Assembly: GCA_903944345.1 (NCBI GenBank)
Contig: CAJARJ010000005.1
Coordinates: 7,890-71,889 of the forward strand
Reading direction: 5' to 3'
Length of the DNA stretch: 64,000 nucleotides
From: Candidatus Omnitrophota bacterium
GTDB lineage: Bacteria; Omnitrophota; Gorgyraeia; Zapsychrales; Fredricksoniimonadaceae
In this document: piece after piece, positions 3,656 through 63,798 of the stretch
Numbering within the stretch: position 1 is the first letter of the stretch
Layout of the letters: each line of letters starts with the position of its first letter
Position numbers and translations under genes: made by a program
Notes under the pieces: generated by a model
Seen by the model: only the letters and a program-made list of their open reading frames with translations
Databases searched by the model: none
Told to the model about the DNA's origin: nothing

Positions 3656-4006
3656 ATGTCTGATTGTGTTTTCTGCAGGAATCTGCCCAAGATAATAGAA
3701 AATGATCTGGCTTATGCCATTTATGATATCAATCCGGTCTCGGACGGACATGCTTTGATTATTCCCAAAAGACACACCAGTGACATCTTTGAAGTTACAG
3801 CAGAAGAAAACACTGCAATGCAGGAACTTCTCGCACTCATGAGAGAACGTATTATTTCAAAGTATGCCCCGGATGGTTTTAATATCTGGAGCAATTTCGG
3901 TAAAGCCGCGGGGCAAGTGGTCATGCATACCCATATACATCTAATCCCTCGTTACAGTGGCAGGGTGCTGCATATCAAGGACCATCTCAAGGGCAATATC
4001 GAATAA
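3656..4006 (+). CDS. HIT-family hydrolase
   Basis: Histidine-triad motif HTHIHLIP near the C-terminus; GGAG RBS at 3645. Confidence 0.8.
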   Translation: MSDCVFCRNLPKIIENDLAYAIYDINPVSDGHALIIPKRHTSDIFEVTAEENTAMQELLALMRERIISKYAPDGFNIWSNFGKAAGQVVMHTHIHLIPRYSGRVLHIKDHLKGNIE

Positions 4007-4929
4007 TGAGTCTTACGCATTCCGGGGGTTTTGTTTTTATGAATGCAAAACAAACTGCAGGCTCCTGGTTTCTGGCAACTCGTCCTCAAACACTCTGGGC
4101 TTCAGCGTCTCCGGTCATTATCGGAACAGCCTTGGCCTATCGGGACGGCGGCTTTCATCTGTCATCTGCTCTTGCGGCGTTATGCGGGGCTTTACTGATC
4201 CAGATTGGCACTAATTTTGCCAACGATTATTTTGACACTCAGAACAAAATTGACCAGCCCGGAAGCCATGAGCCGATAAGAATCACCCAGGGAACGCTGC
4301 TTCCTGCAGCGACAATCAGACTGGCTTTTACTCTTGTTTTTCTGGCTGTTTTGCCATTTGCTTACTTTCTGACTTTGCGTGCCGGCTTGCCGATTCTCTT
4401 TCTTGGCATTATTTCGATCTTCTTTGGTTTCTTTTACAGTGCCGGGCCGCGTCCATTCTCACATCTTGGACTCGGGGATATTCTGGTTCTTGTCTTTTTC
4501 GGTCCGGTAGCAGTTGGCGCTACTTATTATTGTCAGGCTTTGACAATAAACGGCACTGTTTTTCTGGCAGGCTTGTCCTGCGGGTTTCTTTCAACCGCGA
4601 TCATGGTCGTAAATAATCTACGTGACATTAAAACCGACCGTCTGGCAGGGAAGATCACGCTTGCGGTCCGTTATGGGGAACGTTTTACGCGCTATGAGTA
4701 TGTTTTCTGCCTCCTGGCGGCCAGTGCGGTTGTTCCGCTTCTTATGGTGCTGTCCAAAGATGGCAGTTTCCTGAAACTTATACCGGCGGCCTTTATTTTT
4801 GCATGCATACCCCTGATTCACGATTTACATATGAGCAAAACGCCTGAAGATCTTAATATGGTTTTGTCCGCAACCGGACAAGTGCTTTCTGTTTTTACAC
4901 TCCTTTTTTCAATTCTATGGATACTATAA
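4006..4929 (+). CDS. menA: 1,4-dihydroxy-2-naphthoate octaprenyltransferase (UbiA family)
   Basis: Polytopic membrane protein with NDYFD prenyltransferase motif; start overlaps the HIT stop (TAATG). Confidence 0.8.
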   Translation: MSLTHSGGFVFMNAKQTAGSWFLATRPQTLWASASPVIIGTALAYRDGGFHLSSALAALCGALLIQIGTNFANDYFDTQNKIDQPGSHEPIRITQGTLLPAATIRLAFTLVFLAVLPFAYFLTLRAGLPILFLGIISIFFGFFYSAGPRPFSHLGLGDILVLVFFGPVAVGATYYCQALTINGTVFLAGLSCGFLSTAIMVVNNLRDIKTDRLAGKITLAVRYGERFTRYEYVFCLLAASAVVPLLMVLSKDGSFLKLIPAAFIFACIPLIHDLHMSKTPEDLNMVLSATGQVLSVFTLLFSILWIL

Positions 4930-6017
4930 AAATTGTTGCTGTTAATCTCTACAATGTTTCCTGTGGCTTGCGTAAACCGTTTACGTCCCGCGGAGTGGTT
5001 ACCAGTCAGCGGCATTCCATTCTGGTTCAGTTTATAGGTGATAACGGGGAAATGGGCTTTGGTGAGGCATCACCCCTTGAGGGCTTCAGTCCAGAATCCC
5101 TGAAAAAGGCCCGCCATCAAATGAGCCTCCTAGCCAAAGAATGGAAGAATCGTAATGTCCCCTGTAAGGGCGAAGAGCTTGTTCTTTTTTTACGGTCGGC
5201 CTTTGACAGGACTGTTAACGCTTCCTCGGTCATTTTCGCCTTCGAATCTGCCGCCATAACAATGGTCGCCCGCTTCAAAAATGTTGCGCCTTGCGAAATT
5301 TTGCATGCCGGGAGCACCCGTTCCGTCCCTTCAGCCGGTCTTTTGCAAGGAAGTGTTAGTGAAGTGGTCGATGAGGCAAGACTCCTCAAGTCTCGTGGAT
5401 ATTCTGTCTTCAAACTGAAAGTCGGGTCAAGAAATATTCCTCTTGATGTCCAAAAAGTTGAAGAAACAAAGTTGGCTATCGGCCCTCAGGGACGGCTGCG
5501 ACTTGACGCGGATCGTTCCTGGCATTTTGACGAAGCTCTGCTATTTGCCCAAAACATTGGTAAGAACCAGATCGAGTTTATTGAAGATCCCTGTTTATCG
5601 CAAGATCAGTGGAACAGGTTTGTCCGTTTGTCTGATATCCCGGTTGCTGCCGATGAGTTTTTGTCCGGTACGGATAATTTGTCGCGGAAGAACATGGAAA
5701 CCATCCCGTACCTGATTATTAAACCCACTGTGTGCGGCGGAGTCATTGCTGCGTTACAGTTGATGAAAAAAGCTGCGCAGAACGGACAAAAAGTTATCAT
5801 CAGCTCTTCTTTTGAGTCGGGTGTAGGCTTAAGGATGCTGGCCAATCTGGGCTGTTTATCCGGTCAGGCGGCGGGTCTTGGCACCAGTGAATGGCTGCAA
5901 CAAGACATTCTTTCACAGCCGCTGGTTGCATCCGGGGGAATAATCACAGTCCCGGCGCTGGCTCTGAATGTTGACCTTTTTAGAACTGACATCAAGGCAT
6001 CTTTGGCTACTTTCTGA
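4917..6017 (+). CDS. menC: o-Succinylbenzoate synthase (enolase superfamily, MLE subgroup)
   Basis: KLKVG, LRLDADRSW, IEDP and IIKP catalytic motifs of OSBS/MenC; sits between menA and a menE-like gene. Confidence 0.75.
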   Translation: MDTIKIVAVNLYNVSCGLRKPFTSRGVVTSQRHSILVQFIGDNGEMGFGEASPLEGFSPESLKKARHQMSLLAKEWKNRNVPCKGEELVLFLRSAFDRTVNASSVIFAFESAAITMVARFKNVAPCEILHAGSTRSVPSAGLLQGSVSEVVDEARLLKSRGYSVFKLKVGSRNIPLDVQKVEETKLAIGPQGRLRLDADRSWHFDEALLFAQNIGKNQIEFIEDPCLSQDQWNRFVRLSDIPVAADEFLSGTDNLSRKNMETIPYLIIKPTVCGGVIAALQLMKKAAQNGQKVIISSSFESGVGLRMLANLGCLSGQAAGLGTSEWLQQDILSQPLVASGGIITVPALALNVDLFRTDIKASLATF

Positions 6018-6895
6018 TGGATTGTCCTGTTGCCTTTCATGCCCGGGAGAATCCGGATCGTATCGCCCTTTTATGGGGAAAGCGCAGCCTTTCCTGGGGG
6101 AATCTCAATGACTATGTTCATGGGACTTGCAGGGCGCTGAAAGAAATCGGCGTCAGGCCCAACAACCGCTTCGCTGTTTTGTCTACCAACACCCTTGAAA
6201 CGATTATTATACTTCTTTCTGCCTGGCGGGCAGGCGCGTCTGTTCTGGTTCTTGATCCGGCCTTATCTTTGTCTATCGGACGAAAAATTCTTGACCAGTA
6301 TAAAATTGACCTGCTTTTTTCTGATACCAAAGATTATAAGGCCTTTTCAGGACAACGCCGGACAGTCATTCTCAACAAGGTTATTTGCAAACATAACGAT
6401 TTATTCCTTTCCCATAAATTGCCCGGTATTAATCCCGATTCCAGCGGTCTGCTGCTTGTTCGTAATGCCGCCCAGGAACTGGCTGCATACAACACGGTCG
6501 ATTATGGACAACTGTTTCATTGTGCCGAAGAAGATAATCAAAAGACTGCCTATGGATCCACAAAAATCTGGTTATTACCGTTCCCTTTGCATCATATATG
6601 GGGACAACGAATTCTTTTCAGAGGGCTGGCTGGCGGGGGAGCAATTGTTTTGCCGGAATTCGAGTCGGACTTTCTTAACGATCCCGCACAATTTTCCATA
6701 ACACTCGGATTCTATAAAATTACTCATATATTCTGCCCTTTAGTGCAGTTGGGTGAACTCGTTAGGAATTCGGCTGTTTTAGCTTCTTTACGCTGTCTGG
6801 ATGCCATTCTTGTTGAACAAGGATCGCCGGATTCCACGTTATTGGATAAAGCTTCCGGCCTTTCAATACCCTTAGTGGTCAGTATTAACGGATAG
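6017..6895 (+). CDS. MenE-like AMP-binding protein, truncated and degenerate (292 aa; P-loop lost, C-terminal domain absent)
   Basis: Aligns to the MenE N-terminal domain (LSWGNLNDYVHGTCRALKEIGV..., LPFPLHHIWGQ ~ LPLFHVSGQ) but TSGSTGxPK is replaced by NPDSSGLLLV; ends ~150 aa short, with only 119 nt before the next gene. Confidence 0.5.
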   Translation: MDCPVAFHARENPDRIALLWGKRSLSWGNLNDYVHGTCRALKEIGVRPNNRFAVLSTNTLETIIILLSAWRAGASVLVLDPALSLSIGRKILDQYKIDLLFSDTKDYKAFSGQRRTVILNKVICKHNDLFLSHKLPGINPDSSGLLLVRNAAQELAAYNTVDYGQLFHCAEEDNQKTAYGSTKIWLLPFPLHHIWGQRILFRGLAGGGAIVLPEFESDFLNDPAQFSITLGFYKITHIFCPLVQLGELVRNSAVLASLRCLDAILVEQGSPDSTLLDKASGLSIPLVVSING

Positions 6896-6947
6896 TTAGG
6901 CTATTTCTTTTGAAGATTGCTTGCAACCGCAGAGACTTATAAAGTTC

Positions 6948-6976
6948 TTGTCGCTTGCCTGTAGAGGGAATAGAAT
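6948..6976 (+). promoter_or_regulatory. Putative sigma70 promoter (TTGTCG-17-TAGAAT) for the downstream thioesterase
   Basis: Hexamers read directly with 17-nt spacer, ~40 nt before ATG 7015. Confidence 0.25.
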
Positions 6977-7014
6977 GTAATAGTTATCGGCTAATCCAAA
7001 ACTGAAAGTAAGAA

Positions 7015-7422
7015 ATGTTTATTTATTACACGCAGATCAGTCTTCATCATACAGACGCTTTTGGCAGGCTTTTTTTCGCCCGACAGTTTGACCTTGTTTA
7101 CGAGGCTAAAGAGAAACTTTTCGAACAAATCGGCCTTTCTGTGCCATATATGCTGGCCCTTAAAGAACTGGACTTCCCGCTAGTCCATGCCGAGTCGGAT
7201 TATAAGGCTGTTCTTTTGCCAGGAGACAAGATCACCATAGATGTTAACATTGATAAGATCGGTGAGACATCGGTGATTTTTTCGTATCTCATCAAAAAAG
7301 CTGACGGGACCATAGCCGGCACAGCCAAAACAGTCAATGTTTGTGTCAATAAACAAACAAACCAGAAAGCCCGGGTCCCCGAACTGTGGAGAGAGAAACT
7401 TCTCTCTCAAGCCCTGTTGTAA
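7015..7422 (+). CDS. Hotdog-fold acyl-CoA thioesterase (4HBT/YbgC-like; candidate DHNA-CoA thioesterase MenI)
   Basis: 135 aa; N-terminal YYTQISLHHTDAFGRLFFARQFD hotdog signature; placed at the end of the men cluster. Confidence 0.6.
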   Translation: MFIYYTQISLHHTDAFGRLFFARQFDLVYEAKEKLFEQIGLSVPYMLALKELDFPLVHAESDYKAVLLPGDKITIDVNIDKIGETSVIFSYLIKKADGTIAGTAKTVNVCVNKQTNQKARVPELWREKLLSQALL

Positions 7423-24754: not shown

Positions 24755-25473
24755 TTATCCTTCCGGCTATTGATATTAAACAGGGTCGCGTCATTCGTCT
24801 TTTCAAAGGACAATTTGACAAGGTTACCGATTATGGTGCTGATCCTTTGTCTATGGCCAAACACTGGGAAGATATGGGCGCACCTTATTTGCATGTTGTC
24901 GATCTGGACGGAGCAGAATCAGGAAACCGGATCAACCAATCCATCATTTGCCGCATAGCCCAAGACCTCAAAATTCCTGTCGAAACCGGCGGAGGCATTC
25001 GTTCGCACGAAACGATCAGGGAATATATGCAGGCAGGTATTTCCCGGGTTATTCTGGGAACCAGAGTCGTCAGCGACCGGGACTTTCTTAAACGCGCACT
25101 GGCTGATTGGGGCGAACGTATTGCGGTCAGTATTGACTGTTCCAACGGTTTTGTCGCACAACGAGGATGGCAGGAAACCTCCTCGGTTAAAGGCATTGAT
25201 CTGGCTCGCGAATTTTCCGCCATGGGACTTCAGTACATTATTTACACGGATATAGCCAGAGACGGCACTCTTGAAGGGCCAAACATTACAGGGCTGCTCG
25301 AAATTCTTGATAATGTTTCTGTCAACGTTATTGCTTCGGGGGGAATTAAAGATGAGTCCGACATCAAAACTCTGTCCGCCCTCAAACGTTCCAATTTGTA
25401 CGGAGTCATAACCGGCAAAGCCATTTACGAAGGCAAGCTTGATCTTAAACACGCTTTAGGGCTTTGCCAATGA
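24751..25473 (+). CDS. hisA: ProFAR isomerase
   Basis: MIILPAIDIKQGRVIRL...; overlaps the hisH stop. Confidence 0.9.
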   Translation: MIILPAIDIKQGRVIRLFKGQFDKVTDYGADPLSMAKHWEDMGAPYLHVVDLDGAESGNRINQSIICRIAQDLKIPVETGGGIRSHETIREYMQAGISRVILGTRVVSDRDFLKRALADWGERIAVSIDCSNGFVAQRGWQETSSVKGIDLAREFSAMGLQYIIYTDIARDGTLEGPNITGLLEILDNVSVNVIASGGIKDESDIKTLSALKRSNLYGVITGKAIYEGKLDLKHALGLCQ

Positions 25474-27401
25474 GCCAACCCGGTTTGCGGACGACTTTTG
25501 TTGAGTATTGTCGTCGTGTTTTCTTTCTGTGTTCGAACCCGTTTTTTCCTTTCGTATTAGGCTTGATTTCTTTCTGCCTTATTATCGGACTGTTCTTCCC
25601 TCTTTTGAATGCAGAATATTTGTTCCATTATGATGATGGAACGAATTTCTTGCATAATTCCTGGGTAATAAACACTGAATTAACACAAATATGGAAGATC
25701 TTCTTTGCTGCAAATACAGCAAATCAAACCTATGTTCCCTTAAGCGTGCTGACTTTCTTTCTGGAGAACTATTTATGGGGACTACACGCACCTGTATCTC
25801 ATCTGATTAATCTTTTCTTACATCTCGCTGTTGTTGTTTTCTTGTACCAGTTTGCCAGATTGATAGGATCAACGAGGATCACCGCATTTACCGCTGCGTT
25901 AATATTTGCTCTACACCCATTACATGTGGAGCCAGTCGTCTGGGTATCTGCCCGCAAGGATCTTTTGTTCTCTCTTTTTTATCTCTTGTCCCTGATAGAA
26001 TATTGTCGGTACATTAAAGAACGTAAAGCCCAGGATTATTGCTTGTCTTTATTGGCCGGTTTACTGAGCATTCTCTCTAAACCTATGGCTATCTCATTGC
26101 CATTGGCACTTTTTCTGGTTGATTATTTAATGCAAAGACGGTTTGGAAAAAGATCCCTGTTTGATAAACTGCCTTTTATTTTCACCATTCTGCCCATTGG
26201 ATGGATAACCTACGCGATGAACGCCCGGTCATCCTTTTTTATCTGGCCAGATTCTTTACTTTTCTGGTCTGATTGCGGCTGGTTTTACATATCAAAATTT
26301 TTCTGGCCTGCTGCGTTAACCCCCTTAACTTTACCCGATTTATCTGCTAATTGGCTTTCAGACAGATTTATTTTTTCATTTCTTCCGTTAACTGCTTCTT
26401 TACTTGTGGCTCTTTTTGTAAAAAGCAGGTTAATGTTCTTTTCTTTAATGTTTTATGTGTGTGGCACCTTCTTTCTCTGGCGCTTTGATCTGGGTGTCGA
26501 TCTGAATTATGTTGCCGGAAGATTTATGTATCTGCCCAGCATCGGGTTTTGCCTACTGGTCGGCTTCTGTTTCGAGCAACTCCTTCGGCGTTTCAAGCCG
26601 GGATACTTTGCATGGGTTCTTCTTTCTGTTTTGATCATTTCTTTTCTTGTTTTGTCAGCCCGACAAGTTAGAATATGGCATAATTCGTGCGTTTTCTGGA
26701 AAGAGATCACTGCCCGCAATCCCGAATTTCCAGAAGGTTGGCGCTGGTTAGCTGCCGCCTATAACAATGGGGGAGAAGGTTGCTCCAGGCAAATTGCGCG
26801 GATGATTGCTGAAGATAAAAAAATATCCTGGATTAAATTTAGAAAAAAATATTCCGATTCTTATTATCTTAAAATTGATATCGTTCGACGAATACTGTCT
26901 TTACGCTATAGTCGAAAAGCATTGGAACTTAATCCTGAAGGCACCCAGGAATTGAATTATATCGGACGGGCTTTATTATTTCTTGGAAGCCCGCTAAAAG
27001 CACTTTACAACTTTGACCGGGCCATAGACCTGGATCCAAAGGAACCTTTACATTATTTGTTCCGAGCCAGGACTCATGCGGCATTAGCTCGATATGAAAA
27101 GGCAGTAACTGATTATGCTCAAACAATCGCTTTAGGTCATATTTCCGCTGAAACTTTCAGCGAGCGCGCAGATCTTTTGATACTGGCCAATCGGCCAAAG
27201 GAAGCTCTGGAAGACCTTAAGCGGGTTCTTGTTCATAGACCATTGAACAGGGACATTTATTCAAGATCATTTCTGGCTGCTATAAGAAGTTCGCAGCTGG
27301 AATTTGCCAATGATATTCTTACTCTGGAAAACAAGCTGTTTCCAAACGATATTTTATTGGACCAACACAAGCGATTACTTGAGCAGGCCCAAAGTCGTTG
27401 A
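25470..27401 (+). CDS. TMTC/PMT-like polytopic membrane protein with C-terminal TPR repeats (putative protein O-glycosyl/mannosyltransferase family)
   Basis: ATG overlaps the hisA stop; ~11 TM N-domain with LHPLHVEPVVWVSARKDLLFS motif; C-terminal TPR repeats; visibly AT-richer than flanking his genes. Confidence 0.65.
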   Translation: MSQPGLRTTFVEYCRRVFFLCSNPFFPFVLGLISFCLIIGLFFPLLNAEYLFHYDDGTNFLHNSWVINTELTQIWKIFFAANTANQTYVPLSVLTFFLENYLWGLHAPVSHLINLFLHLAVVVFLYQFARLIGSTRITAFTAALIFALHPLHVEPVVWVSARKDLLFSLFYLLSLIEYCRYIKERKAQDYCLSLLAGLLSILSKPMAISLPLALFLVDYLMQRRFGKRSLFDKLPFIFTILPIGWITYAMNARSSFFIWPDSLLFWSDCGWFYISKFFWPAALTPLTLPDLSANWLSDRFIFSFLPLTASLLVALFVKSRLMFFSLMFYVCGTFFLWRFDLGVDLNYVAGRFMYLPSIGFCLLVGFCFEQLLRRFKPGYFAWVLLSVLIISFLVLSARQVRIWHNSCVFWKEITARNPEFPEGWRWLAAAYNNGGEGCSRQIARMIAEDKKISWIKFRKKYSDSYYLKIDIVRRILSLRYSRKALELNPEGTQELNYIGRALLFLGSPLKALYNFDRAIDLDPKEPLHYLFRARTHAALARYEKAVTDYAQTIALGHISAETFSERADLLILANRPKEALEDLKRVLVHRPLNRDIYSRSFLAAIRSSQLEFANDILTLENKLFPNDILLDQHKRLLEQAQSR

Positions 27402-27458
27402 CAAATTTCTTTCGATGAACTTTATTTTACACTTTTGTTTAAACAATAACGGAGTATT

Positions 27459-28214
27459 ATGCTGACGAAACGCATTATTCCCTGCCTGGATGTTAAAGAC
27501 GGGCGAGTGGTTAAAGGCATTAATTTTGTCCAGTTACGTGATGCCGGAGACCCGGTCGAAATAGCCCGGGCTTATGATCTGGCCCGAGCGGACGAACTGG
27601 TTTTTCTGGATATTACAGCCAGCCATGAAGGCAGAAAGATATTTCTCGATGTGGTCAAGCGCACAGCCGAACAGATTTTTATGCCTTTGACGGTTGGTGG
27701 AGGGATTAACTCGGTCGAGGATATCCGGAGCTTACTTAATGCAGGGGCAGATAAAATTTCACTCAATACAGCTGCGGTGGCCAATCCGGCACTGATCAAG
27801 GAAGCTTCGGACAAATTTGGCTCGCAGTGTATTGTTGTGGCCATTGATGTCCGAAAAATTAACGGCGACTGGATCGTTTTCACGCATGGAGGCCGTCAAC
27901 AAACCAACCTCCAGGCTGTGCCCTGGGCGAAAGAAGTCGAAAGGCTTGGGGCTGGTGAAATCCTTTTGACCAGCATGGATACTGACGGGACAAAAGACGG
28001 GTTTGATATCCCGCTGACACGTGCTGTCAGTGCGTCGGTAGGGATTCCTGTCATAGCCTCGGGAGGGGCAGGTGCGCTTGCTCATTTCTATGATGTTTTC
28101 AGCCAGACGGGGGCGCAAGCCGCACTGGCCGCTTCCATTTTTCACTTTGGAGAAATTGCCATACCACAGGTTAAAGGTTATTTAATGGAACGTTCCGTTT
28201 GTGTTCGTGTCTAA
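27459..28214 (+). CDS. hisF: Imidazole glycerol phosphate synthase, cyclase subunit
   Basis: [20 protein letters not shown]; GGAG RBS. Confidence 0.9.
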
Positions 28215-28266
28215 TATTTTTTCAAGTTAAACGTATAAGCACCTGTGTTATCATCGAGGAATATCT

Positions 28267-30105
28267 ATGCGGCGCCAGTCGAAACGTCCTGGTTTTTACT
28301 GGGTCTATATCGTTCGCTGCCGATTGGGGACTTATTATGTTGGTTGCACTAATGATCTTGAAAAACGGATTAAACGGCATAATACGGGTCAAGGTGCAAA
28401 ATATTTAAGAGGCCGAGGCCCGGTTGAGCTTGTCTACAGAACAAAATGCCCAACCTTTGCTGCAGCCCTTCGTCTGGAATGGAAAATCAAACAGCTCTCA
28501 CATTCAGATAAAGAAAGATTGTTGTCGCAATATTCTGCTCAAGCAGCTTTAACTGCCAGACAAGATCCAAAATCGACGAATGCTGATAAAAGGAAAAATA
28601 TGAATGAAATTAACGAAAAAGAATTTCTCAGGCTTGCTTCCAAAGGTGGGCTTATTCCGGTATTTCGGGAGATCCCGGGCGACCTTGAGACGCCAGTTTC
28701 AGCCTATTTTAAAATCAGCAAGGCCAACAAATATTCGTTTCTGCTTGAATCTGTTGAAGGCGGAGAGAAACTGGCACGTTATTCTTTTCTGGCAGCAGCG
28801 CCAGAATGTGTTCTGGAGTCTAAAGGACGTGTGGCTAAAATTATTCGTTTTACAAAAAAAGGCCCTGTAGCCCATGCGGCTCCTTTTCGTGATTCACCAT
28901 TGGAAATCGTTCGGGAGTTGATTAGTAAGTATAATTATGTTAATATCTCAGGTCTTCCGGGTTTTAGTGGAGGATTTGTAGGCTATCTTGGCTATGATAT
29001 GGTTCGGTTCTTTGAGAATTTGCCAGAAAAAACTGAAGATGATCTTGGTTTACCTGATATGGTTCTGATGCTTGCCAAGGATTTACTGATCTTTGATCAT
29101 TTGCATCATACGATCAAAGTCATTAGCTGTACGGAGATAGACAGCCATGATGACCGATTAACAAAAATCCGTAAATTCAGGCAGGCCCATAAAAGAATCG
29201 CTAAAATGGTTGGTTTATTGTCTGCACCTTTACCAAAATTGAAACGTGCCAGACAAAAATCGTCCTCCGCAGAAGCCAAAGCTACTGCCGATTTGTCAAA
29301 AACGAAGTACGAGTCTATGGTCAGCCGGGCAAAAGAAGAAATTCGCTCGGGTGAAATTATACAAGTTGTTCTCTCTCAGCGTTTTAAGGTTGATTGTCCG
29401 ATTGATTCCATAGAACTTTATAGAACCCTTCGTAATCTTAATCCGTCACCGTATATGTATTTATTAAACCTTGACGGTCTCAATATTGTCGGTTCTTCTC
29501 CGGAATTACTTATGCGTTGCGAGAATGGCATTGTCGAAACTCGACCGATCGCAGGAACCAGACCTCGAGGGCATTCTCTGGAGGATGATCTAAGGCTCGA
29601 ACAAGAGCTTCTGAATGATCCTAAAGAACGGGCAGAACATGTCATGCTCGTTGATCTGGGACGCAATGATCTCGGGCGAGTCTGCCGGGAAGGCAGCGTC
29701 AGGGTCACTGATCTCATGTCTGTTGAACGTTTTTCACACGTTATGCATATTGTCTCCAACGTCCGTGGAGAATTGGCTGAAGGACAAGATGCCTTAAGCG
29801 CGCTTCAATCTGTTTTTCCGGCCGGGACTTTATCCGGAGCACCCAAAGTCCGCGCCATGCAGATTATCGAGGAATTGGAAACAAAACGCCGTGGCCCCTA
29901 TGGGGGGTGTGTTGGATATTTCAGCTTCTCCGGAAATATCGATACCTGTATAACGATTCGTACGATTGTTTTAAGCAAGGGGTCTGCTTATATTCAGGCT
30001 GGCGCGGGAATCGTGGCAGATTCAGATCCTTTTACCGAATACAACGAAACACTAAACAAGGCTAAAGCGCAAATAAAAGCGCTGCAATTGGCGCAACGGC
30101 GCTGA
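28267..30105 (+). CDS. trpE: In-frame fusion: N-terminal GIY-YIG (YhbQ/UPF0213-like) domain + anthranilate synthase component I (TrpE); internal ATG with own RBS at 28600
   Basis: Residues 8-90 YWVYIVRC..GTYYVGCTNDLEKRIKRHNTGQGAKYLRGRGPVELVY match YhbQ; from MNEINEKEFL: LLESVEGGEKLARYSF, PIAGTRPRG, GAGIVADSDP TrpE motifs; no stop between the domains. Confidence 0.75.
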   Translation: MRRQSKRPGFYWVYIVRCRLGTYYVGCTNDLEKRIKRHNTGQGAKYLRGRGPVELVYRTKCPTFAAALRLEWKIKQLSHSDKERLLSQYSAQAALTARQDPKSTNADKRKNMNEINEKEFLRLASKGGLIPVFREIPGDLETPVSAYFKISKANKYSFLLESVEGGEKLARYSFLAAAPECVLESKGRVAKIIRFTKKGPVAHAAPFRDSPLEIVRELISKYNYVNISGLPGFSGGFVGYLGYDMVRFFENLPEKTEDDLGLPDMVLMLAKDLLIFDHLHHTIKVISCTEIDSHDDRLTKIRKFRQAHKRIAKMVGLLSAPLPKLKRARQKSSSAEAKATADLSKTKYESMVSRAKEEIRSGEIIQVVLSQRFKVDCPIDSIELYRTLRNLNPSPYMYLLNLDGLNIVGSSPELLMRCENGIVETRPIAGTRPRGHSLEDDLRLEQELLNDPKERAEHVMLVDLGRNDLGRVCREGSVRVTDLMSVERFSHVMHIVSNVRGELAEGQDALSALQSVFPAGTLSGAPKVRAMQIIEELETKRRGPYGGCVGYFSFSGNIDTCITIRTIVLSKGSAYIQAGAGIVADSDPFTEYNETLNKAKAQIKALQLAQRR

Positions 30106-30136
30106 AGGTTTAAACAGAAAGAAAGGAAAGAGTTTC

Positions 30137-30388
30137 ATGGAAGTCAAAATCAGAATGCAGAAATTTGGAAATGCTGCACAAAAGAATTATAATTGGAGGA
30201 TTGTGGCTATTCCAAAAGAATCTCCTCGCGATGGCCGCGTACTTGAAATCCTGGGACATTATGATCCAGCCAAAAAGCCGGCAACATACAAGATTGATCT
30301 GGCAAAAACAGAGAAGTGGCTGAAAACCGGAGCCATTATGTCCGATACTGTAAAGTCACTTTATTTGAAATCCAAAAAAGCTAAGTAA
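30137..30388 (+). CDS. rpsP: 30S ribosomal protein S16
   Basis: 83 aa; MEVKIRMQKFGNAAQKNYNWRIVAIPKESPRDGRVLEILGHYDP. Confidence 0.85.
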   Translation: MEVKIRMQKFGNAAQKNYNWRIVAIPKESPRDGRVLEILGHYDPAKKPATYKIDLAKTEKWLKTGAIMSDTVKSLYLKSKKAK

Positions 30389-30404
30389 ACCGGAAAGGTT
30401 TTTC

Positions 30405-30689
30405 ATGCAGACACCTGCCCAGCCGAATATCATCGCGCAGTTGCTTCCGATGGTGATTATTTTCGGGATTTTCTATTTTCTTGTTATTCGTCCCGAGCGC
30501 AAGAAGCAAAAAGACCACCAGCTACTGCTGGCCGGAATTAAGAAAAACGATGAAGTTGTTACTGCGTCCGGCATCCACGGTACTGTTGTTATCGTCAAGG
30601 ACAAAACAGTAGTGCTTCGTCTTGATGAAAATTGCCGGGTTGAATTCGATAAAGAGGCAGTCCTGACAATTGTCAAGAAAGCCGAATAA
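30405..30689 (+). CDS. yajC: Preprotein translocase subunit YajC
   Basis: 94 aa; single TM plus ...FLVIRPERKKQK YajC signature. Confidence 0.85.
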   Translation: MQTPAQPNIIAQLLPMVIIFGIFYFLVIRPERKKQKDHQLLLAGIKKNDEVVTASGIHGTVVIVKDKTVVLRLDENCRVEFDKEAVLTIVKKAE

Positions 30690-30759
30690 CCGCCGGTCTC
30701 CCTTTTTTCAGGGCAGATCCTGCTTGCGGAGATTCGTTACAACAAATTAAGGAAGACTT

Positions 30760-32970
30760 ATGAGCAAGTCGCTTCGTAGCCGTTTTCTGATTATTTTTGG
30801 TGTTCTGGCCGGTTGCATTCTCTTCGCATGGCCACTGGAAAAACGCATAAACCTCGGACTGGATCTTAAAGGGGGGATGCATCTTATCCTCAAAGTCGAG
30901 ACGGATTCCCTCCCGGCTAAAGATCGTCCAGATGCTGTTTTGCGTGCCATGGAAATTCTGCGCAATCGTATTGACAGCCTGGGTGTTGGCGAAACAGTTG
31001 TTCAGCGCCAGGGAGAAAACAATATTCTTGTTCAGTTGCCTGGTGTTACAGACCGGGAAACGGCTGTCGACATGGTTAAACGTGTGGCGCACCTTGAATT
31101 CCATCTGGTGGATGATGATTCTGCCAGAATGCAGGAGGCTCTTAAAGGCTCTGTTCCTGAAGGTGTTCTGCTCAAAACCATCAAAGATGACAATGATCAG
31201 ATTCTCATAAGCGCGAAAGCGGCTTTACAGGGTTCGGCCATTACTGATGCCAAGGTTGATTTTGACCAAACCGGAATTTCTCCACAAATTTCCCTTTCCT
31301 TTAACGCCCAGGGAACCAAAGATTTTGCCGCGCTGACCCAGGATAATGTTGGTAAACGGCTGGCTATTGTTCTTGATGGGGAAGTGCTTTCGGCCCCTAA
31401 CATTCGCGAACCAATTCTGACTGGCAGCGCCCAAATCAGTGGTCAATTTACTTTTGATGAAGCCTCACTCCTCGCGCTGGCGCTGCGTTCCGGTTCATTA
31501 CCTGTCCCGATTCATATTGAAGAAGAACGTACAGTTGGCCCTCTTTTAGGACAGGACTCTATTAACGCGGGATTTAAAGCTGTCCTTATTGGTGCGCTTT
31601 TGGTGTTCTTTTTTATGATCGTCTATTATATGATTGGCGGTCTTGTGGCCACTCTGGCGCTTATGCTGAATTTGATCATGACTGTCGGGATCATGGGATT
31701 TCTTAATGTCATGCTGCCCAACTCACAAGTAACACTGACTCTGCCCGGCATTGCCGGTCTGGCGTTGACGCTGGGTATGGCTGTCGATGCCAATATCCTT
31801 ATTAATGAACGTATGCGTGAAGAAATCGATAACGGCCGCCCTCTCGCCGCTGCTGTAAACGCAGGCTATGACAAGGCCCTGACCGCGATTATTGATTCAA
31901 ACGTAACCACGATTATTGCTGCCTTCATGTTATTCCAGTTCGGGTCCGGTCCGATCAAGGGCTTTGCCGTTACTCTGACCATCGGCTTGTTAGCAAGTTT
32001 GTTCTCTGCTGTGTATGTAACACGTACTGTTTTTATGCTCCTTCTGGAGAAGAACTGGATCAAGTCCTTACCCATGTTGCGTCTTATCAAGGAAACCAAA
32101 ATTGACTTTATCGGGAAAGCTCCAATCTTCATAATTGCGGCAATTTTGCTTATGACTCTGGGACTTTATAATCTTTACCAGAAAAAAGATACAGCTTATG
32201 GTATAGATTTTGCCGGCGGGCAGGTTCAGGAGTATCGCTTTACAAATCCGCTGTCTGCAGAAGACCTGCGTAAAGCTTTTAAAAACGCCGGGGTAAAGGA
32301 TGCTGTTATTCAACAATTTGCACAAAATCCGCAGAATGTCATCATTCGAACACCTGAAGACACCTATGAGTTGGTTCAGCAAACACTCAAACAGTCTTTC
32401 CCAGGCAATGCCTTTGAAACTTTACGTATCGAGAAAGTCGGTCCGGTAGTAGGACAACATTTGCGCACACGTGCGTTCTGGGCATTGTTACTTGCCTTGT
32501 TGGGAATCATCATTTATGTATGGTTTCGTTTCAAGCATATCGATTTTGCCGTGGCGGGAGTTATTGCGCTTTTACACGACGTCTTTATTGCGATGGGGAT
32601 CACGGTTCTTTTAGGACGACAGATTGACCTTCTGATTGTCACGGCTTTTTTGACAATCGCAGGGTATTCTATCAATGACACCATTGTTATTTATGATCGT
32701 GTTCGTGAGAATATCGCCAAGTCCGGACACAAAAAGTTTGTTCTCAAGGATGTTATCAATTTAAGTCTGAATCAGACCTTGGGCCGGACACTACTAACTT
32801 CTTTGGCGACTTTACTTGTGGTTATTGCTTTTTATTTCTTTGGCGGTGAAGTTCTTAACACCTTCGCTTTAACATTAGTTATTGGATTTATTGCTGGTAT
32901 TTTCTCAACCATGTACATTGTTTCACCTCTGGTTATCTGGTGGAATCTGCTCAGAAAAACATCCTGGTGA
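30760..32970 (+). CDS. secDF: Fused protein-export membrane protein SecDF
   Basis: 736 aa; SecD N-term (LGLDLKGGMHL) and SecF core (GIDFAGGQVQEY) in one frame. Confidence 0.85.
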   Translation: MSKSLRSRFLIIFGVLAGCILFAWPLEKRINLGLDLKGGMHLILKVETDSLPAKDRPDAVLRAMEILRNRIDSLGVGETVVQRQGENNILVQLPGVTDRETAVDMVKRVAHLEFHLVDDDSARMQEALKGSVPEGVLLKTIKDDNDQILISAKAALQGSAITDAKVDFDQTGISPQISLSFNAQGTKDFAALTQDNVGKRLAIVLDGEVLSAPNIREPILTGSAQISGQFTFDEASLLALALRSGSLPVPIHIEEERTVGPLLGQDSINAGFKAVLIGALLVFFFMIVYYMIGGLVATLALMLNLIMTVGIMGFLNVMLPNSQVTLTLPGIAGLALTLGMAVDANILINERMREEIDNGRPLAAAVNAGYDKALTAIIDSNVTTIIAAFMLFQFGSGPIKGFAVTLTIGLLASLFSAVYVTRTVFMLLLEKNWIKSLPMLRLIKETKIDFIGKAPIFIIAAILLMTLGLYNLYQKKDTAYGIDFAGGQVQEYRFTNPLSAEDLRKAFKNAGVKDAVIQQFAQNPQNVIIRTPEDTYELVQQTLKQSFPGNAFETLRIEKVGPVVGQHLRTRAFWALLLALLGIIIYVWFRFKHIDFAVAGVIALLHDVFIAMGITVLLGRQIDLLIVTAFLTIAGYSINDTIVIYDRVRENIAKSGHKKFVLKDVINLSLNQTLGRTLLTSLATLLVVIAFYFFGGEVLNTFALTLVIGFIAGIFSTMYIVSPLVIWWNLLRKTSW

Positions 32971-33070: not shown

Positions 33071-34963
33071 ATGTTCCGTTCAATAAAATATTTTGTCTCC
33101 CAGCATATTGCCTTCGATGAATTCTCTACCGGGCTCATTCGTTTCGGATACGCACGTGTCAAAACTGTTGCCCAGGAGGGGGAATACGCCATCCGCGGAG
33201 AAATCATTGACATCTTTCCTTCCGGATTCGATTCGCCGGTACGCATTGACAGTGAAGATGGTATTATCCGAAAAATCTTTTCCTTCCAGATAATCTCGGG
33301 GAAAAATGTCTGGGAACATGAAGCTGTCATAATTTTCCCGGTTAAAGGGCTTGCCCCGGATGAAGTTTTCCAGGAAGACATGCCGTTAACGCCTTTTGTG
33401 GATATCCGCAAGGGGGACTATGTTGTTCATAACCAGCATGGGATCGGTCGGTTTATCGGCCTCAAAGAGTTTGCGGTCGATCTAAAGCAAGTCGAGCATT
33501 TTGTAATTGAGTACCAAGGTGGAGATAAACTTTTTGTACCCCAGAAGGATCTTCATCTCGTCCAGAAATACATTGGCTTCACAAAAAAGCCCCCCCGTCT
33601 TTTCCGCCTTGGCTCCCGCGAATGGGAAAAGATCCGCAAGACAATAGAAAAACGACTCCAACGCCTTGCCTCAGAACTCCTTCACGTGCAGGCGTTGCGT
33701 AACAGCATGGTAGGGTTTGCCTGTACCAAAGACAATGAATGGCAGTCCGAATTCGAACAAACGTTTCCTTTTATTGAAACTCCGGATCAGAGTAAAGCTG
33801 CACTTGAAGTTAAGGCAGACATGGAATCCCCCCGACCAATGGATCGTTTGTTATGTGGCGATGTGGGATACGGAAAAACAGAAGTTGCCATGCGTGCAGC
33901 CTTCAAGGCTGTCATGAACGCAAAACAAGTCGCAATTCTGGTGCCGACAACAGTTCTGGCGGAACAGCATTATCTTAATTTTTCAAGGCGGATGAAGGAC
34001 TTTCCTGTGCGTATCGGCATGGTTTCCCGTTTCAGAAGCAAAAATGAACAAATTCATACCATTAAAGAAGCCGCTGCCGGAAAAGTGGATATTATTATCG
34101 GAACGCATCGCCTGCTTTCCAAAGATGTACACTTCAGGGATCTTGGGCTGATCATTATTGATGAAGAACAACGCTTTGGAGTAACAGCAAAAGAACGACT
34201 AAAACATATGAAGCTGTTATGCGATGTGTTAACAATGACCGCGACACCGATACCGCGCACGCTTTATATGGCTATGGTCAGTTGCCGTGACATGTCCGTC
34301 ATTTCCACCCCTCCGTCCAACCGGATTCCGGTTGCAACCGAAATCATCTGCTTTGATGAAGACACTATTCGTCTGGCCATTAAACGTGAACTGGCCCGCG
34401 GGGGACAGGTCTTCTTTCTTCATAATCATGTTGAAGACATTATTACTGTCGCAGGAAAGATCGCAAAACTTGTTCCTAAAGCTCGTCTTGGCATAGGTCA
34501 TGGGCAAATGCCGGGGAAAGACCTGGAAAATATCATGCTTGATTTTCTCAAAGGCGAGATTGATGTTTTAGTCTGTACGACTATAATAGAATCAGGTATA
34601 GATATTCCTAATGCCAATACGCTGATTGTTAATAAAGCTGACCGTTTCGGGTTATCCGATCTGCATCAACTGCGTGGACGTGTAGGACGTACAAATATAA
34701 AAGCCTATGCCTATTTCATAGTCCCGGACAGATCAATTTTATCCGGTGTCGCGCGCAAACGGATGGAAGTTTTACAGAAATTCAGCGATCTGGGTGCCGG
34801 ATTTCATATTGCATTCGAAGATCTTCAGATAAGAGGCGCTGGCAACCTCCTCGGGGAACAGCAGCACGGCTATATTTCCAATGTAGGCTTTGACCTTTAT
34901 TGCCGAATGTTAAAAGGATCAGTCGAAAATCTTAAAAAAGAAATGGCTCGCACCAATGCTTAA
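33071..34963 (+). CDS. mfd: Transcription-repair coupling factor Mfd, short form (D3-D4(RID)-D5-D6 only; lacks UvrB-homology D1a/D2/D1b and C-terminal D7)
   Basis: 630 aa; RNAP-interaction domain [17 protein letters not shown]...[15 protein letters not shown]; helicase motifs [24 protein letters not shown]; ends right after [13 protein letters not shown]; terminator upstream, so no N-terminal extension. Confidence 0.75.
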
Positions 34964-48446: not shown

Positions 48447-50342
48447 ATGTCTGAAGTACCTAAAAAAGTTGCCCCAAAAAGTCCTTCCCGCAAGAATCCG
48501 AAACAGGATCCGGGGCAAGGTAGCGGAGTCTGGATAGTATGGGCTATTATCATCGTTGTCTTTCTCATATTCGCCAATTCGCCCAACGTCAACAAAGGAA
48601 CCTCAGGATCCTTAAAGATGTCCTACAGCGAATTTTACGCTCTGGTAAAAGAAAACCAGGATGCAGGCCAGATTCGGAAACTGGTTCTGACCGAAGGAGC
48701 GGAAAACACCCTGGAGGGAACCCTCAAAGACGGCGGGAAGTTTCGCGTCAATATTCCGCGTGACGACAAGGATCTTTTAGGAGTCATCCGGCAGAACGTC
48801 AAAGACTTTACCGTACAGCCACTTGAAACTTTCTGGTCCCAGGCCTTTTTCTCGTTTGTTCCTGTTTTTCTGATTATATTTTTTATCTGGTTTCTTGGTC
48901 GTCGTGGAGCCGAGATGGGAAACAAAATCTGGTCGTTCGGCAAGTCGCGTGCAAAAATCTCAGACAAAGGGCAGAACAGTATTACTTTCAAAGATGTTGC
49001 CGGAGTGGATGAGGCCAAAGAAGAGCTTCAGGAAGTCATCGAATTCCTGAAAGAGCCAAAGAAATTTGAACGACTCGGAGGAAAAATTCCAAAAGGCGTG
49101 CTGTTAGTAGGCCCTCCGGGAACCGGAAAAACCCTCCTGGCCAAAGCCGTTGCGGGCGAAGCCGGTGTCCCGTTCTTTTCTTTGAGCGGTTCGGACTTCG
49201 TTGAAATGTTCGTTGGTGTGGGGGCTTCACGGGTTCGTGATCTTTTTGAACAGGCCCGCAAAGCCAGCAAAACATCAGGAAAGGGATGTATTATATTTAT
49301 TGACGAAATTGATGCCGTGGGCCGTCAGCGTTTTGCCGGCATTGGCGGGGGTAACGATGAGCGCGAACAAACTCTTAACGCCCTGCTGGTGGAAATGGAC
49401 GGATTCAGCTCTCCAAGCGGGCTGATTGTTATGGCCGCTACCAACCGTCCTGACACCCTGGATCCTGCGTTGCTGCGTCCCGGCCGTTTCGACCGCCGTG
49501 TTGTGGTCGGGCTTCCTGATATCAACGGACGAGAGGGCATATTAAAAGTTCACTGCCGGGGTATCAAGATCGGTCCTGACGTGGATCTTAAAAAAATTTC
49601 CCAGCAAACCGTTTATTTCTCCGGTGCCGATCTGGCCAATGTCTGCAATGAAGCCGCACTGCTGGCTGCGCGTCGTAATAAAGACATTGTTGCACAGGAA
49701 GATTTCCATGCCGCGGTAGAAAGAGTCACACTCGGACCTGAGAAAAAGTCGCATACCACTTCTCGCCGGGAAAAAGAAATGACCGCCTATCATGAAGCAG
49801 GGCATGCTCTCTTAAGTCTGTTGATTGATGAAGTGGATACATTCAGTAAAGTTTCGATTATTCCGCGTGGCATGGCCGGAGGCTATACCCTTACACCACC
49901 GACAGAAGACAAGCATTATTACACCCGCAAGGAACTCTTCGGACAAATGACCGTTTTACTGGGTGGTCTGGTGGGCGAGGAAACTTTCATGAATGACTCA
50001 ACAACCGGAGTGTCCAATGATCTGGAAAAAGTTGCCCAGCTGGCTCGCGGAATGATATGTTCTTTCGGAATGACCGACGATCTGGGCAAACGGGCCTTCG
50101 GACGCAGCGGCCATCCTTCTTTTCTCGGGAGAGATATCTTCGAGGAAAAAGAATACAGCGAAGATACCGCCAAAAGCATTGATCGTGAGATAAAGTCCCT
50201 GGTGGATAAAGCGTATGCACGGGCCCAGGATCTTATCCGGAAGAATCGTGAGAAACTCGATCTTCTGGCGCAATATCTTATTGAAAAGGAAGTGATTGAT
50301 ATCGACACAGCCAGAGTAATGCTCGGTATTACCGTCGCATGA
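48447..50342 (+). CDS. ftsH: ATP-dependent zinc metalloprotease FtsH
   Basis: Two TM; Walker A GPPGTGKT; SRH; HEAGHAL zinc site. Confidence 0.95.
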
Positions 50343-51211
50343 TTACCAATAACAGGCCTGTTTATTCTTTCCATGCCCGCGGCTTTAAGCTTGAGCTTGG
50401 ACACAGAACCCGCCTGATGGGAATACTCAATATCACTCCGGATTCTTTCAGCGGAGATGGTTTGTTGTCTTGCGATGCTGTATCAACAGAAACTTCTTTA
50501 AGAAAAGCCCGTCAATGGATTAAAGCCGGAGTCGATATCATTGATGTCGGAGGAGAATCAACCCGGCCCGGAGCTTCCCGCGTTTCGGTTAAAGAAGAGG
50601 TTGCCCGAATCTGTCCGGTCATCTGTGCAATCTCGCGTATTCCGGGCGCTTGTATCTCGGTTGACACATACAAGCCGGAAGTTGCCCGCGAAGCGTTTGA
50701 AGCCGGAGCGTCTATTGTTAATGTCGTCCAAGGCACTCCGATCTCTTCCAAAATGCTTGATGTGGTACGAAAATATGATGCCGGGCTTGTTCTCATGCAT
50801 ATGCGCGGAACACCGCGTACTATGCAACAGCAGACCAATTATTCCCAACTTGTTCAGGACATTATTAGCGCCCTGAAGAATTCAGTTGAAAAATGCCTGT
50901 TATCCGGTATAAATAAGCAGTCTATAATTGTTGATCCTGGAATCGGTTTTGCGAAGACACCTGCACAGAATCTGAGCTTGCTTAGAAGTCTGGATGCTTT
51001 TCATGTTTTACAACAACCGCTTCTGGTGGGAACATCACGCAAATCTTTTATCGGGCAAATCATTAATGCTTCGCCGGAGAAAAGGCTTATGGGGACGGCA
51101 GCTACTGTAGTTTGTGCCATTACTCAGGGAGTTCATATTGTCCGGGTTCATGACCTGCCGGCGATCAGGCAGCTAACGCTTATGACCGATGCTATTGTAA
51201 ACGCCCTATGA
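50339..51211 (+). CDS. folP: Dihydropteroate synthase
   Basis: GILNITPDSFSGDG; DIGGESTRPG; overlaps the ftsH stop. Confidence 0.9.
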   Translation: MITNNRPVYSFHARGFKLELGHRTRLMGILNITPDSFSGDGLLSCDAVSTETSLRKARQWIKAGVDIIDVGGESTRPGASRVSVKEEVARICPVICAISRIPGACISVDTYKPEVAREAFEAGASIVNVVQGTPISSKMLDVVRKYDAGLVLMHMRGTPRTMQQQTNYSQLVQDIISALKNSVEKCLLSGINKQSIIVDPGIGFAKTPAQNLSLLRSLDAFHVLQQPLLVGTSRKSFIGQIINASPEKRLMGTAATVVCAITQGVHIVRVHDLPAIRQLTLMTDAIVNAL

Positions 51212-62424: not shown

Positions 62425-63798
62425 TCAGAGGCCCTTGAACTCTACCGCAATTTTCTGAACCACATCTTTTGCGTCGCCAAAAATCATACGGGTATTATCG
62501 TAATAGAAAAGCTCGTTCTCCACTCCGGCAAAGCCGGTATTCATCGAACGCTTTATAACAAAAACCGTTTTAGCCTTGAACGTTTCAATAATGGGCATTC
62601 CGTATATCGGGGAGGCTTTGTCGGTCATTGCTGCCGGATTAACCGTGTCATTGGCACCAACCACAATACAGACATCCACCGAGTCCATAGTCGGATTGAT
62701 ATTATCCATTTCCACCAACTGCTCATAGGGAACATTAGCTTCAGCCAGAAGAACATTCATATGACCCGGCATGCGGCCGGCAACCGGATGAATGGCATAC
62801 TTGACATCGGCTCCGTTTTTCTGTAACAATTCTCCCAACTCACGGACAACATGCTGGGCTTGAGCGACCGCAAGTCCGTATCCAGGCACAATAACCACCG
62901 AGCGGGCGGCTTCTAGCACCAGAAACGCATCCTGGGCAGAAACAGATTTTATCTCGCCTTTAACCGTACCCGAAATCTTCTTCTTTGCTGTACTAAACCC
63001 GCTAAAAAGAACATTGGACAGGGAACGGTTCATGGCCTTGCACATGATTTGGGTAAGAATAATCCCGCTTGCTCCAACCAGAGTTCCCGTGACAATCAGA
63101 ATGCTGTTCATGATTACAAAACCGGAAGCGCAGGCAGCAAGACCGGAATAACTGTTGAGAAGCGAGATGACCACAGGCATATCGGCTCCGCCAATAGGAA
63201 TGACAGAAGTCACGCCCAAGAGGAGAGATAAAACAAGAATGCCAAGAAAGACAGGATAAGACTGCGCAGGATGCCAGCAGTATATCACTCCTGCCAGCAT
63301 TAAAAGGACAAGAAGACCAGTGTTAAACCACTTCTGACCATTAAAAAGAATAGGCTTGGCGGAAAAAACACCATTTAATTTCCCCCAGGCAATCAGCGAC
63401 CCGGTAAACGTTACGCCGCCAATAAGAACAGTCAAGAAAGTTGAAACAGAAGTAAACAAATCACTGCGTGGGGTGAAATGATATGTGCTCCAGGCAACAA
63501 GCAGGGAAGCCAGGCCGCCAAAACCGTTAAGAATAGCCACCATTTCCGGCATTTGCGTCATTGCAACTGCATACGCCCAGAAAACACCAATAATTGTTCC
63601 AATCACAGCCCCGATAAGAATCCACTCAAATTCAAGCCCCTGGTTAAAAAGGGTTGCTGTAACGGCAAGCAGCATCGCCACGGCGGAAAGCAAATTTCCA
63701 TTTCGCGCGCTGTCCGGATGCGACATCATTTTGAGTCCCCAAATAAAAGCCGCAGCGGATAAAATATAAATAATATTGATCCAGAAATACGAATTCAT
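62425..63798 (-). CDS. pntB: NAD(P) transhydrogenase subunit beta
   Basis: 457 aa on the - strand; multi-TM N-half and C-terminal NADP(H) domain GYGLAVAQAQH...AGRMPGHMNVLLAEA. Confidence 0.9.
   Translation of the reverse strand: MNSYFWINIIYILSAAAFIWGLKMMSHPDSARNGNLLSAVAMLLAVTATLFNQGLEFEWILIGAVIGTIIGVFWAYAVAMTQMPEMVAILNGFGGLASLLVAWSTYHFTPRSDLFTSVSTFLTVLIGGVTFTGSLIAWGKLNGVFSAKPILFNGQKWFNTGLLVLLMLAGVIYCWHPAQSYPVFLGILVLSLLLGVTSVIPIGGADMPVVISLLNSYSGLAACASGFVIMNSILIVTGTLVGASGIILTQIMCKAMNRSLSNVLFSGFSTAKKKISGTVKGEIKSVSAQDAFLVLEAARSVVIVPGYGLAVAQAQHVVRELGELLQKNGADVKYAIHPVAGRMPGHMNVLLAEANVPYEQLVEMDNINPTMDSVDVCIVVGANDTVNPAAMTDKASPIYGMPIIETFKAKTVFVIKRSMNTGFAGVENELFYYDNTRMIFGDAKDVVQKIAVEFKGL

Follow-up and report, generated by a model that had tools for sequence, protein, structure and literature searches.

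The Slx1-like clade is the GIY-YIG nuclease domain in its minimal version (Dunin-Horkawicz et al. 2006, PMC1564403). Isolated fusions of Slx1-like domains have been described, namely to a COG4123 methyltransferase, to a SPOUT/TrmH methyltransferase and as an insertion in HsdR of Methylococcus capsulatus, and the authors cautioned that isolated fusions may mirror domain mobility and not functional linkage (PMC1564403). The closest described bacterial proteins are those of the UPF0213 or prokaryotic Slx1-like family (E. coli YhbQ, B. subtilis YazA, BH0048 and EF2693), which are typically free-standing and ~90-110 amino acids (aa) long. We know of no settled biological role for the minimal Slx1/YhbQ-type domain in bacteria, and this role appears to be still undefined, the papers found having given none. 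Here we examine a 64,000-nt stretch of contig CAJARJ010000005.1 (GCA_903944345.1) from a Candidatus Omnitrophota bacterium, referred to below as the window, in which a complete GIY-YIG module of this type runs without a stop codon into a full-length anthranilate synthase component I (TrpE). TrpE is known in fusions with TrpG (TIGR01815 type) but is not known to be fused with a nuclease. We consider it probable that this open reading frame (ORF) is real, that it was born by insertion, that both of its domains are functional and that their linkage is incidental.

A GIY-YIG module and TrpE in one reading frame

The fusion ORF lies at 28267-30105 on the + strand of the window, starts with an ATG and comprises 612 codons without an internal stop. 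An earlier, sequence-only reading of this stretch had claimed a single stop-free frame holding a complete GIY-YIG domain and a full TrpE, and this is what is read directly from the sequence. In Pfam, the 612-aa protein matches GIY-YIG (PF01541, aa 11-80, E 3.5e-18, 66.1 bits against a cut-off of 22.6), Anth_synt_I_N (aa 139-283, E 8.9e-37) and Chorismate_bind (aa 345-598, E 9.6e-96), with no extra Pfam domain between aa 80 and 139. The layout is a GIY-YIG domain at aa 11-80, a tail of ~20 residues and full TrpE from M112, and the junction is covered by the stretches QDPKSTNADKRKNMNEINEK (region 28537-28650) and STNADKRKNMNEINEK. Two strong domain matches in one frame, repeated in independent assemblies, are far beyond chance. 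The locus has the following elements:

27459..28214, + strand: hisF, imidazole glycerol phosphate synthase cyclase subunit (ORF, Pfam His_biosynth); upstream gene
28215..28266, + strand: 52-nt spacer from the hisF stop to the fusion ORF; 5' edge of the apparent lineage-specific insert
28267..28599, + strand: complete UPF0213/YhbQ/prokaryotic-Slx1-type GIY-YIG module, aa 1-111, stop-less (Pfam part 28297-28506)
28537..28599, + strand: variable C-terminal tail of the GIY-YIG module, which forms the inter-domain linker, aa 91-111
28590..28602, + strand: putative internal translation-start signal, AAGGA at 28590-28594, a 5-nt spacer and ATG 28600 (M112)
28600..30105, + strand: TrpE, aa 112-612 plus stop, full length and canonical (TIGR00564, PDB match)
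30137..30388, + strand: rpsP, ribosomal protein S16; conserved downstream neighbour and 3' boundary of the syntenic block

The label of YhbQ/UPF0213 type that had been given to the module holds, the closest solved relatives of aa 1-111 being the UPF0213 proteins BH0048 (PDB 1zg2, E 4.7e-20, query 8-88) and EF2693 (PDB 1ywl, E 9.5e-12); the match to eukaryotic SLX1 (PDB 6seh, E 0.0037) is weak. The whole domain of these proteins, as of YhbQ and YazA, aligns with the window module, which shares the UPF0213 Tyr-Tyr-Gly-Arg-His-Gly-Glu-Lys-Lys set, the size and the variable tail (PMC1564403, PMC7017083). All nine family-invariant residues are kept (Y14, Y24, G26, R34, H38, G43, E71, K75 and K82). 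The invariant columns come from an alignment of 28 family members, and the conclusion does not depend on its E. coli YhbQ row, which was entered by hand. No invariant Asn follows E71 in the family alignment, and the window protein has no Asn at aa 72-104; the Slx1 lineage is described as lacking a conserved C-terminal Asn, unlike UvrC and the homing endonucleases (PMC1564403). Free-standing homologues of the module are 87-113 aa long, with tails that vary past the last conserved helix, and the 111-aa N-terminal part has the size of one whole family gene minus the stop codon. Unlike in typical UPF0213 members, the stop is missing here and the ORF runs 501 codons further into a metabolic enzyme, so that a family domain stands in an atypical architecture.

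The GIY-YIG catalytic fold is also common to the homing endonucleases (I-TevI, phage T4 Seg), and, like the free-standing ones among them, the window gene occupies a new position in the chromosome, with a conserved gene on either side. In contrast to homing endonucleases, it comes without a NUMOD-type DNA-binding domain, intron, intein, phage context or flanking repeats, and it belongs to the Slx1 lineage and not to that of UvrC and the homing endonucleases. Two other identities were tried for the module and rejected: group I intron endonuclease, for which TIGR01453 gave just 18.6 bits against a cut-off of 56.05, and anti-phage defence, with no PADLOC match and with his genes, rpsP, yajC and secDF as neighbours. 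No second GIY-YIG copy was found in the 64-kb window by tblastn.

Residues 112-612 match canonical TrpE (for example M. tuberculosis 5cwa, S. solfataricus 1qdl and S. marcescens 1i7q) over its full length and in its motifs, but the window protein has a 111-residue N-terminal GIY-YIG extension in addition. The NCBIfam model TIGR00564 (trpE_most) scores 566.5 bits against a cut-off of 517.7, and the rival models stay below theirs (PabB-clade2 359.8/408.55, pabB 290.6/328.4, isochorismate synthase 195.6/224.75, and likewise salicylate synthase). The top PDB matches, full length and with E ~1e-129, are TrpE from M. tuberculosis and from M. smegmatis, the best being M. tuberculosis 5cwa (E 3.5e-129, residues 6-499 of 501). 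The TrpE motifs quoted in the sequence-only reading were all found in place (LLESVEGGEKLARYSF at aa 159-174, PIAGTRPRG at aa 427-435 and GAGIVADSDP at aa 579-588), and their positions are mostly invariant among 46 TrpE homologues. LLES (L159, L160, E161, S162), the tryptophan feedback-site motif, is invariant in all 46. The Ala of PIAGTRPRG, which had been cited as an argument against PabB with its Lys, is indeed present, but the argument is not decisive alone, because the PIAGT motif occurs in some PabB enzymes too; it is the model scores and the PDB matches that favour TrpE.

Within the window, trpE is solitary as had been noted, with no trpG, trpD, trpC, trpF, trpB or trpA gene found in 64 kb. 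A solitary trpE at the end of the his operon is a clade trait shared with stand-alone Omnitrophota relatives, and since these relatives have the same placement, the solitude is not a consequence of the fusion. The fused TrpE is the sole chorismate-utilising enzyme encoded in the 64 kb, and the model scores favour a TrpE role for it. The window also contains folP (50339-51211) and, away from it, menA-menC-menE (4006-6895). Together with a thioesterase gene the latter form a cluster at 4006-7422, in whose vicinity menF, menD and menB are lacking.

In an AlphaFold2 (AF2) model, the protein looks like two independent domains joined by a flexible tether. The GIY-YIG part is folded as beta-beta-alpha-beta-alpha-alpha over aa 11-96, with a predicted local distance difference test (pLDDT) score of ~71-81, the linker (aa 91-110) has pLDDT <50, i.e. 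predicted disorder, and the TrpE part has pLDDT ~90. The alignment used for the model held 46 sequences, just two of which cover the N-terminal part.

Persistence of the frame and origin of the insert

The exact 612-aa protein occurs on at least 12 contigs and is present in NCBI, JGI, ENA and Logan. Four contigs from different samples and assemblers (ENA samples SAMEA6872936, SAMEA6872937 and SAMEA6872938, plus Logan ERR4221775) match the window at every nucleotide of the ORF and of the 200 nt upstream. Two more lineages share the 612-codon frame and its neighbours, namely P0002 (L001), with 89% aa identity to the window protein, and P0278 (L044-46, 22 contigs). Between the window and the L001 and L044 lineages, synonymous divergence (dS) has reached 0.6-0.75 with zero indels and zero stops in frame. 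The sequence-only reading had proposed to look for a stop or frameshift at 28540-28600 and for orthologues with the same fusion: no such interruption is seen in the independent contigs, the 612-codon frame is intact in the diverged lineages, and the orthologues sought are those of P0002/L001 and P0278/L044-46. Of its two alternatives, a genuine fusion stands at the gene level, in three lineages, whereas a very recent stop-codon loss or an error does not, the joined frame being older than the split of the three lineages.

No GIY-YIG::TrpE protein outside the P0001/P0002/P0278 group was found among the matches listed, which does not prove that there is none. The searches comprised the full-length protein (best 120 of 8000 matches), a junction query of aa 1-200, which returned mostly fragments, an exhaustive HMMER search for relatives of aa 1-111 (top 150 of 9759) and narrow-pattern scans of genome and metagenome contig collections, in neither of which the window's own species was recovered. 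A 160-aa fragment on a 662-nt ENA contig (P0301) has PRA-CH (HisI, PF01502) followed by Anth_synt_I_N. In a relative, trpE may thus have been joined to a different his gene upstream, which fits the short gap before trpE being fusion-prone.

We estimated omega, the ratio of non-synonymous to synonymous divergence, by the Nei-Gojobori method for the window against L001 and L044. It is 0.10-0.13 for the GIY-YIG domain (synonymous excess, Fisher p 1.7e-10), 0.07-0.09 for TrpE and 0.27-0.52 for tail/linker codons 89-111, which have no indel in the three lineages. By these estimates, both halves are under purifying selection. The linker is poorly conserved in sequence, with its length and frame kept across the lineages. 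Because purifying selection acts on them, the GIY-YIG codons would be translated, and as no stop is then met before 30103, a fusion polypeptide of 612 aa (~69 kDa, estimated from its length) is most likely made. The conserved residues, together with an omega of 0.10-0.13, also support a predicted nuclease activity of the GIY-YIG module.

Among the matches listed, the closest stand-alone TrpE relatives are ~500 aa long, come from Omnitrophota metagenome-assembled genomes and have 65-68% identity. L006, L008 and the P0011 contig share the order alaS-hisD-hisB-hisH-hisA-hisF-trpE-rpsP-yajC-secDF, with the hisF stop 3-9 nt before the trpE ATG and no GIY-YIG gene between them. In the DNA alignment, ATG 28600 of the window falls exactly on the trpE start codon of the relatives (MNEINEKEF in the window, MIHEMTEKEF and MMKQMTEKEF in stand-alone relatives). 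Because hisF adjoins trpE in the relatives and ATG 28600 aligns with their start, the ~385 nt at 28215-28599 are, on this comparison, a lineage-specific insertion; M112 is likewise, judging from the alignment, the ancestral TrpE start. A joining of two long-standing neighbour genes is contradicted by the closest stand-alone relatives, which have hisF directly beside trpE and no GIY-YIG gene.

We propose that a free-standing minimal GIY-YIG gene was inserted into the few-nt hisF-trpE gap at the end of the his operon, probably in an ancestor shared by three or more closely related Omnitrophota lineages. This gene would have been stop-less, its variable C-terminal tail running in frame into the ancestral trpE start to give the 612-codon ORF. 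The outcome would be an N-terminal nuclease domain tethered to TrpE, with each domain probably doing its usual job: GIY-YIG that of a DNA-structure or repair nuclease, and TrpE the amination of chorismate together with a TrpG whose gene lies elsewhere. The birth mechanism of this fusion gene is unusually clear.

The ATG at 28600 that had been pointed out with its AGGA is present, the AGGA lying at 28591-28594, five nt upstream. The SD (Shine-Dalgarno sequence) for M112 is carried by the last linker codons, AAA AGG AAA AAT, and a purine-rich SD before the internal ATG is kept in L001 (AAGGAAG) and L044 (AGGGAAG), the rest of the tail having diverged. Because ATG 28600 corresponds to the ancestral start and its SD is conserved, it is plausible that a 501-aa TrpE is also made by internal initiation. 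At the upstream end, an SD-like GAGGA is found at 28256-28260, six nt before ATG 28267, and a GAGG/GAAGG counterpart is kept upstream of the ORF in L001 and L044. A promoter/terminator scan detected no promoter-like or terminator-like site in the spacer between hisF and the fusion ORF, which is presumably co-transcribed with the his genes because its 52-nt spacer has no such site. An Rfam scan of 27000-31000 found nothing relevant. One source gives the protein just the name 'anthranilate synthase component 1'; a better label would mention both the GIY-YIG/TrpE fusion and the likely internal start.

Several smaller features touch the insert and its surroundings. An out-of-frame TGA-TAA is located at 28584-28589, just upstream of the internal SD, and L001 and L044 share the position of the TAA. 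This may be chance, or else what is left, in another frame, of the stop that the GIY-YIG gene originally had; in the latter case the fusion would have come about by a 1-nt indel, with the caveat that family tails are not conserved. Between hisA and hisF, a 645-aa ORF (25464-27401, + strand) combines a multi-pass membrane N-terminal part with C-terminal TPR repeats. It occurs only in the fusion-bearing lineages (window, L001, L044-46), L006, L008 and the P0011 contig being without it, and is, besides the GIY-YIG module, another lineage-specific insertion in this operon. L001 and L044 are ~95.6% identical over the fusion ORF, but at the equivalents of window 28134-28350 they have 35-37 nt differences per 150 nt, compared to 0-16 elsewhere. 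This divergent stretch spans the 3' end of hisF, the spacer and the first ~30 GIY-YIG codons, and L044 is nearer to the window there, which suggests that the insert's 5' edge is a local recombination tract or a hotspot of mutation.

Probable incidental linkage and the competing explanations

The top 150 of 9759 GIY-YIG homologues are mostly free-standing. Among the same 150 are fusions to ProC (P0146, P0163), to an HD hydrolase (P0179), to a TetR regulator (P0199) and, in both orientations, to GNAT acetyltransferases (P0197, P0203); a further GNAT fusion is seen at L016 3950-4846. All of these are in other organisms, and the repetition of GNAT partners (three fusions) in the GIY-YIG subfamily may be notable in itself. 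The ProC fusions and one GNAT fusion have the Met of the partner itself directly at the junction, which is the same pattern as in the window. The free-standing homologues often overlap or abut unrelated downstream genes (an rsmI-like methylase, glpP, a Na/Ca exchanger, grpB), the gaps ranging from -17 to +15 nt, and where a GIY-YIG gene abuts the next gene in this way, one point mutation or indel makes a fusion. Because the same subfamily is fused to ProC, GNAT, HD and TetR partners, the data suggest a small domain that relocates promiscuously and fuses by opportunity rather than functional coupling.

The fusions described by Dunin-Horkawicz et al. in 2006 and that of the window have in common a lineage-restricted junction to an unrelated protein, of which a very close homologue exists without the domain. 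Unlike in those cases, the partner in the window is an enzyme of amino-acid biosynthesis that has no link to nucleic acids. The domain is fused at the N-terminal side, the start codon and SD of the partner are retained, and the fusion is conserved under apparent purifying selection across three lineages. No published TrpE partner for a minimal GIY-YIG domain was found in the literature searched, and searches for work on Omnitrophota tryptophan biosynthesis, or on YhbQ or UPF0213 with GIY-YIG, found nothing. The case is a new instance of a known phenomenon, the opportunistic fusion of the minimal GIY-YIG domain, with a TrpE partner apparently unreported in that literature.

The joined frame would be spurious if a missed stop or an indel in 28540-28600 had falsely connected two genes during sequencing or assembly. 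The a priori rarity of the architecture, and nothing else, speaks for this; four independent contigs with identical nucleotides, the same protein in NCBI, JGI, ENA and Logan, and an uninterrupted frame in two diverged lineages from other samples rule it out, and the probability that we leave to it is negligible. It is highly improbable that the GIY-YIG part is a remnant that goes untranslated or is decaying, with only TrpE being made from ATG 28600 and the long ORF a gene-calling artefact due to a missing stop. Such a remnant would fit the internal SD and ancestral ATG as well as the G+C content at third codon positions, which in the GIY-YIG part (0.34) is slightly under that of trpE (0.39) and hisF (0.48), but it conflicts with the low omega and the synonymous excess of the GIY-YIG codons, with the retention of all nine family-invariant residues, with the module's own SD (GAGGA) six nt before ATG 28267 and with a domain that is folded in the AF2 model. 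We also regard it as very unlikely that the chorismate-utilising half is a PabB or an isochorismate synthase instead of TrpE. This would explain the absence of trpG/D/C/F/B/A from the 64 kb, that is, the solitude of the gene, together with the men and fol genes (menA-menC-menE and folP) of the window, and the PIAGT motif would be at home in some PabB enzymes as well. Against this, TIGR00564 is above its cut-off with the PabB and isochorismate synthase models below theirs, the best PDB matches are TrpE, and LLES is invariant. In addition, isochorismate and salicylate synthases carry Lys where the motif IIQVVLS of the fused TrpE has Gln, which is a further point against isochorismate synthase.

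The remaining question is whether the linkage itself is selected. In a bifunctional protein, binding of chorismate or tryptophan by TrpE could regulate or localise the nuclease, or the nuclease could modulate the assembly of anthranilate synthase. This is consistent with the linker frame and length kept in three lineages at dS 0.6-0.75, with the intactness and constraint of both domains, and with a tail in which omega is 0.27-0.52 and the chance of no stop arising is ~0.03-0.12. But the architecture was seen only in a tiny clade, and the other TrpE matches (best 120 of each search) are without the domain; the same GIY-YIG subfamily is fused to, or located beside, unrelated partners and genes; the linker is predicted to be disordered; and as the ancestral TrpE start and SD are kept, unfused TrpE is still possible. 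Moreover, we know of no biochemical link between Slx1-like nucleases and tryptophan synthesis. We therefore consider a selected bifunctional protein unlikely, and a coupling of nuclease and tryptophan metabolism is the less likely reading when set beside incidental linkage. Quite unlikely, in our assessment, is an adaptive tether, by which nuclease activity or stability would be coupled to chorismate/tryptophan status via TrpE, or alternatively a selfish GIY-YIG gene that is hitch-hiking. In the selfish version, expression and retention would be secured by translational fusion to an essential biosynthetic gene, with the host escaping by internal initiation, and UPF0213 genes would then be a class of mobile 'hitch-hiking' ORFs.

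Incidental linkage after insertion, which we prefer, has points against it as well. Around the insert, a search for direct or inverted repeats, target duplications and transposon-like ends gave short, chance-level matches only. No donor sequence was found, and the closest GIY-YIG homologues among the matches listed are only ~50-57% identical and come from several phyla. The selection estimates come from few comparisons among three closely related lineages. The chance of about 0.03-0.12 is a neutral one, calculated for a tail without stops at dS ~0.6-0.75, and together with a tail omega <1 the surviving tail frame weakly hints at selection on the fusion, or at least on the tail.

If insertion with incidental linkage is correct, the locus offers a clean and datable case of the birth of a bacterial multidomain gene, in which a whole small gene enters a near-zero gap and reads into the start of its neighbour, with the ancestral internal start and its SD surviving so that the cell can still make the old product. 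The locus is further evidence of promiscuous relocation and fusion of the minimal Slx1/YhbQ-type GIY-YIG domain, here to TrpE and elsewhere to ProC, GNAT, HD and TetR. It also calls for caution in 'Rosetta-stone' inference, as a nuclease-TrpE fusion of this kind is not evidence of a functional link.

Other features of the window

At 33071-34963 (+ strand), the window encodes an Mfd-like protein of 630 aa with UvrB_inter, CarD_TRCF_RID, DEAD and Helicase_C domains and no C-terminal TRCF domain. Mfd is typically longer than 1000 aa. Counterparts in relatives are 566-642 aa long and at the same position, and the shortness seems to be clade-wide. Nearly all genes of at least 120 aa in the window are on the + strand, with one clear exception, pntB (62425-63798, - strand), which suggests that the window is one long co-oriented stretch.

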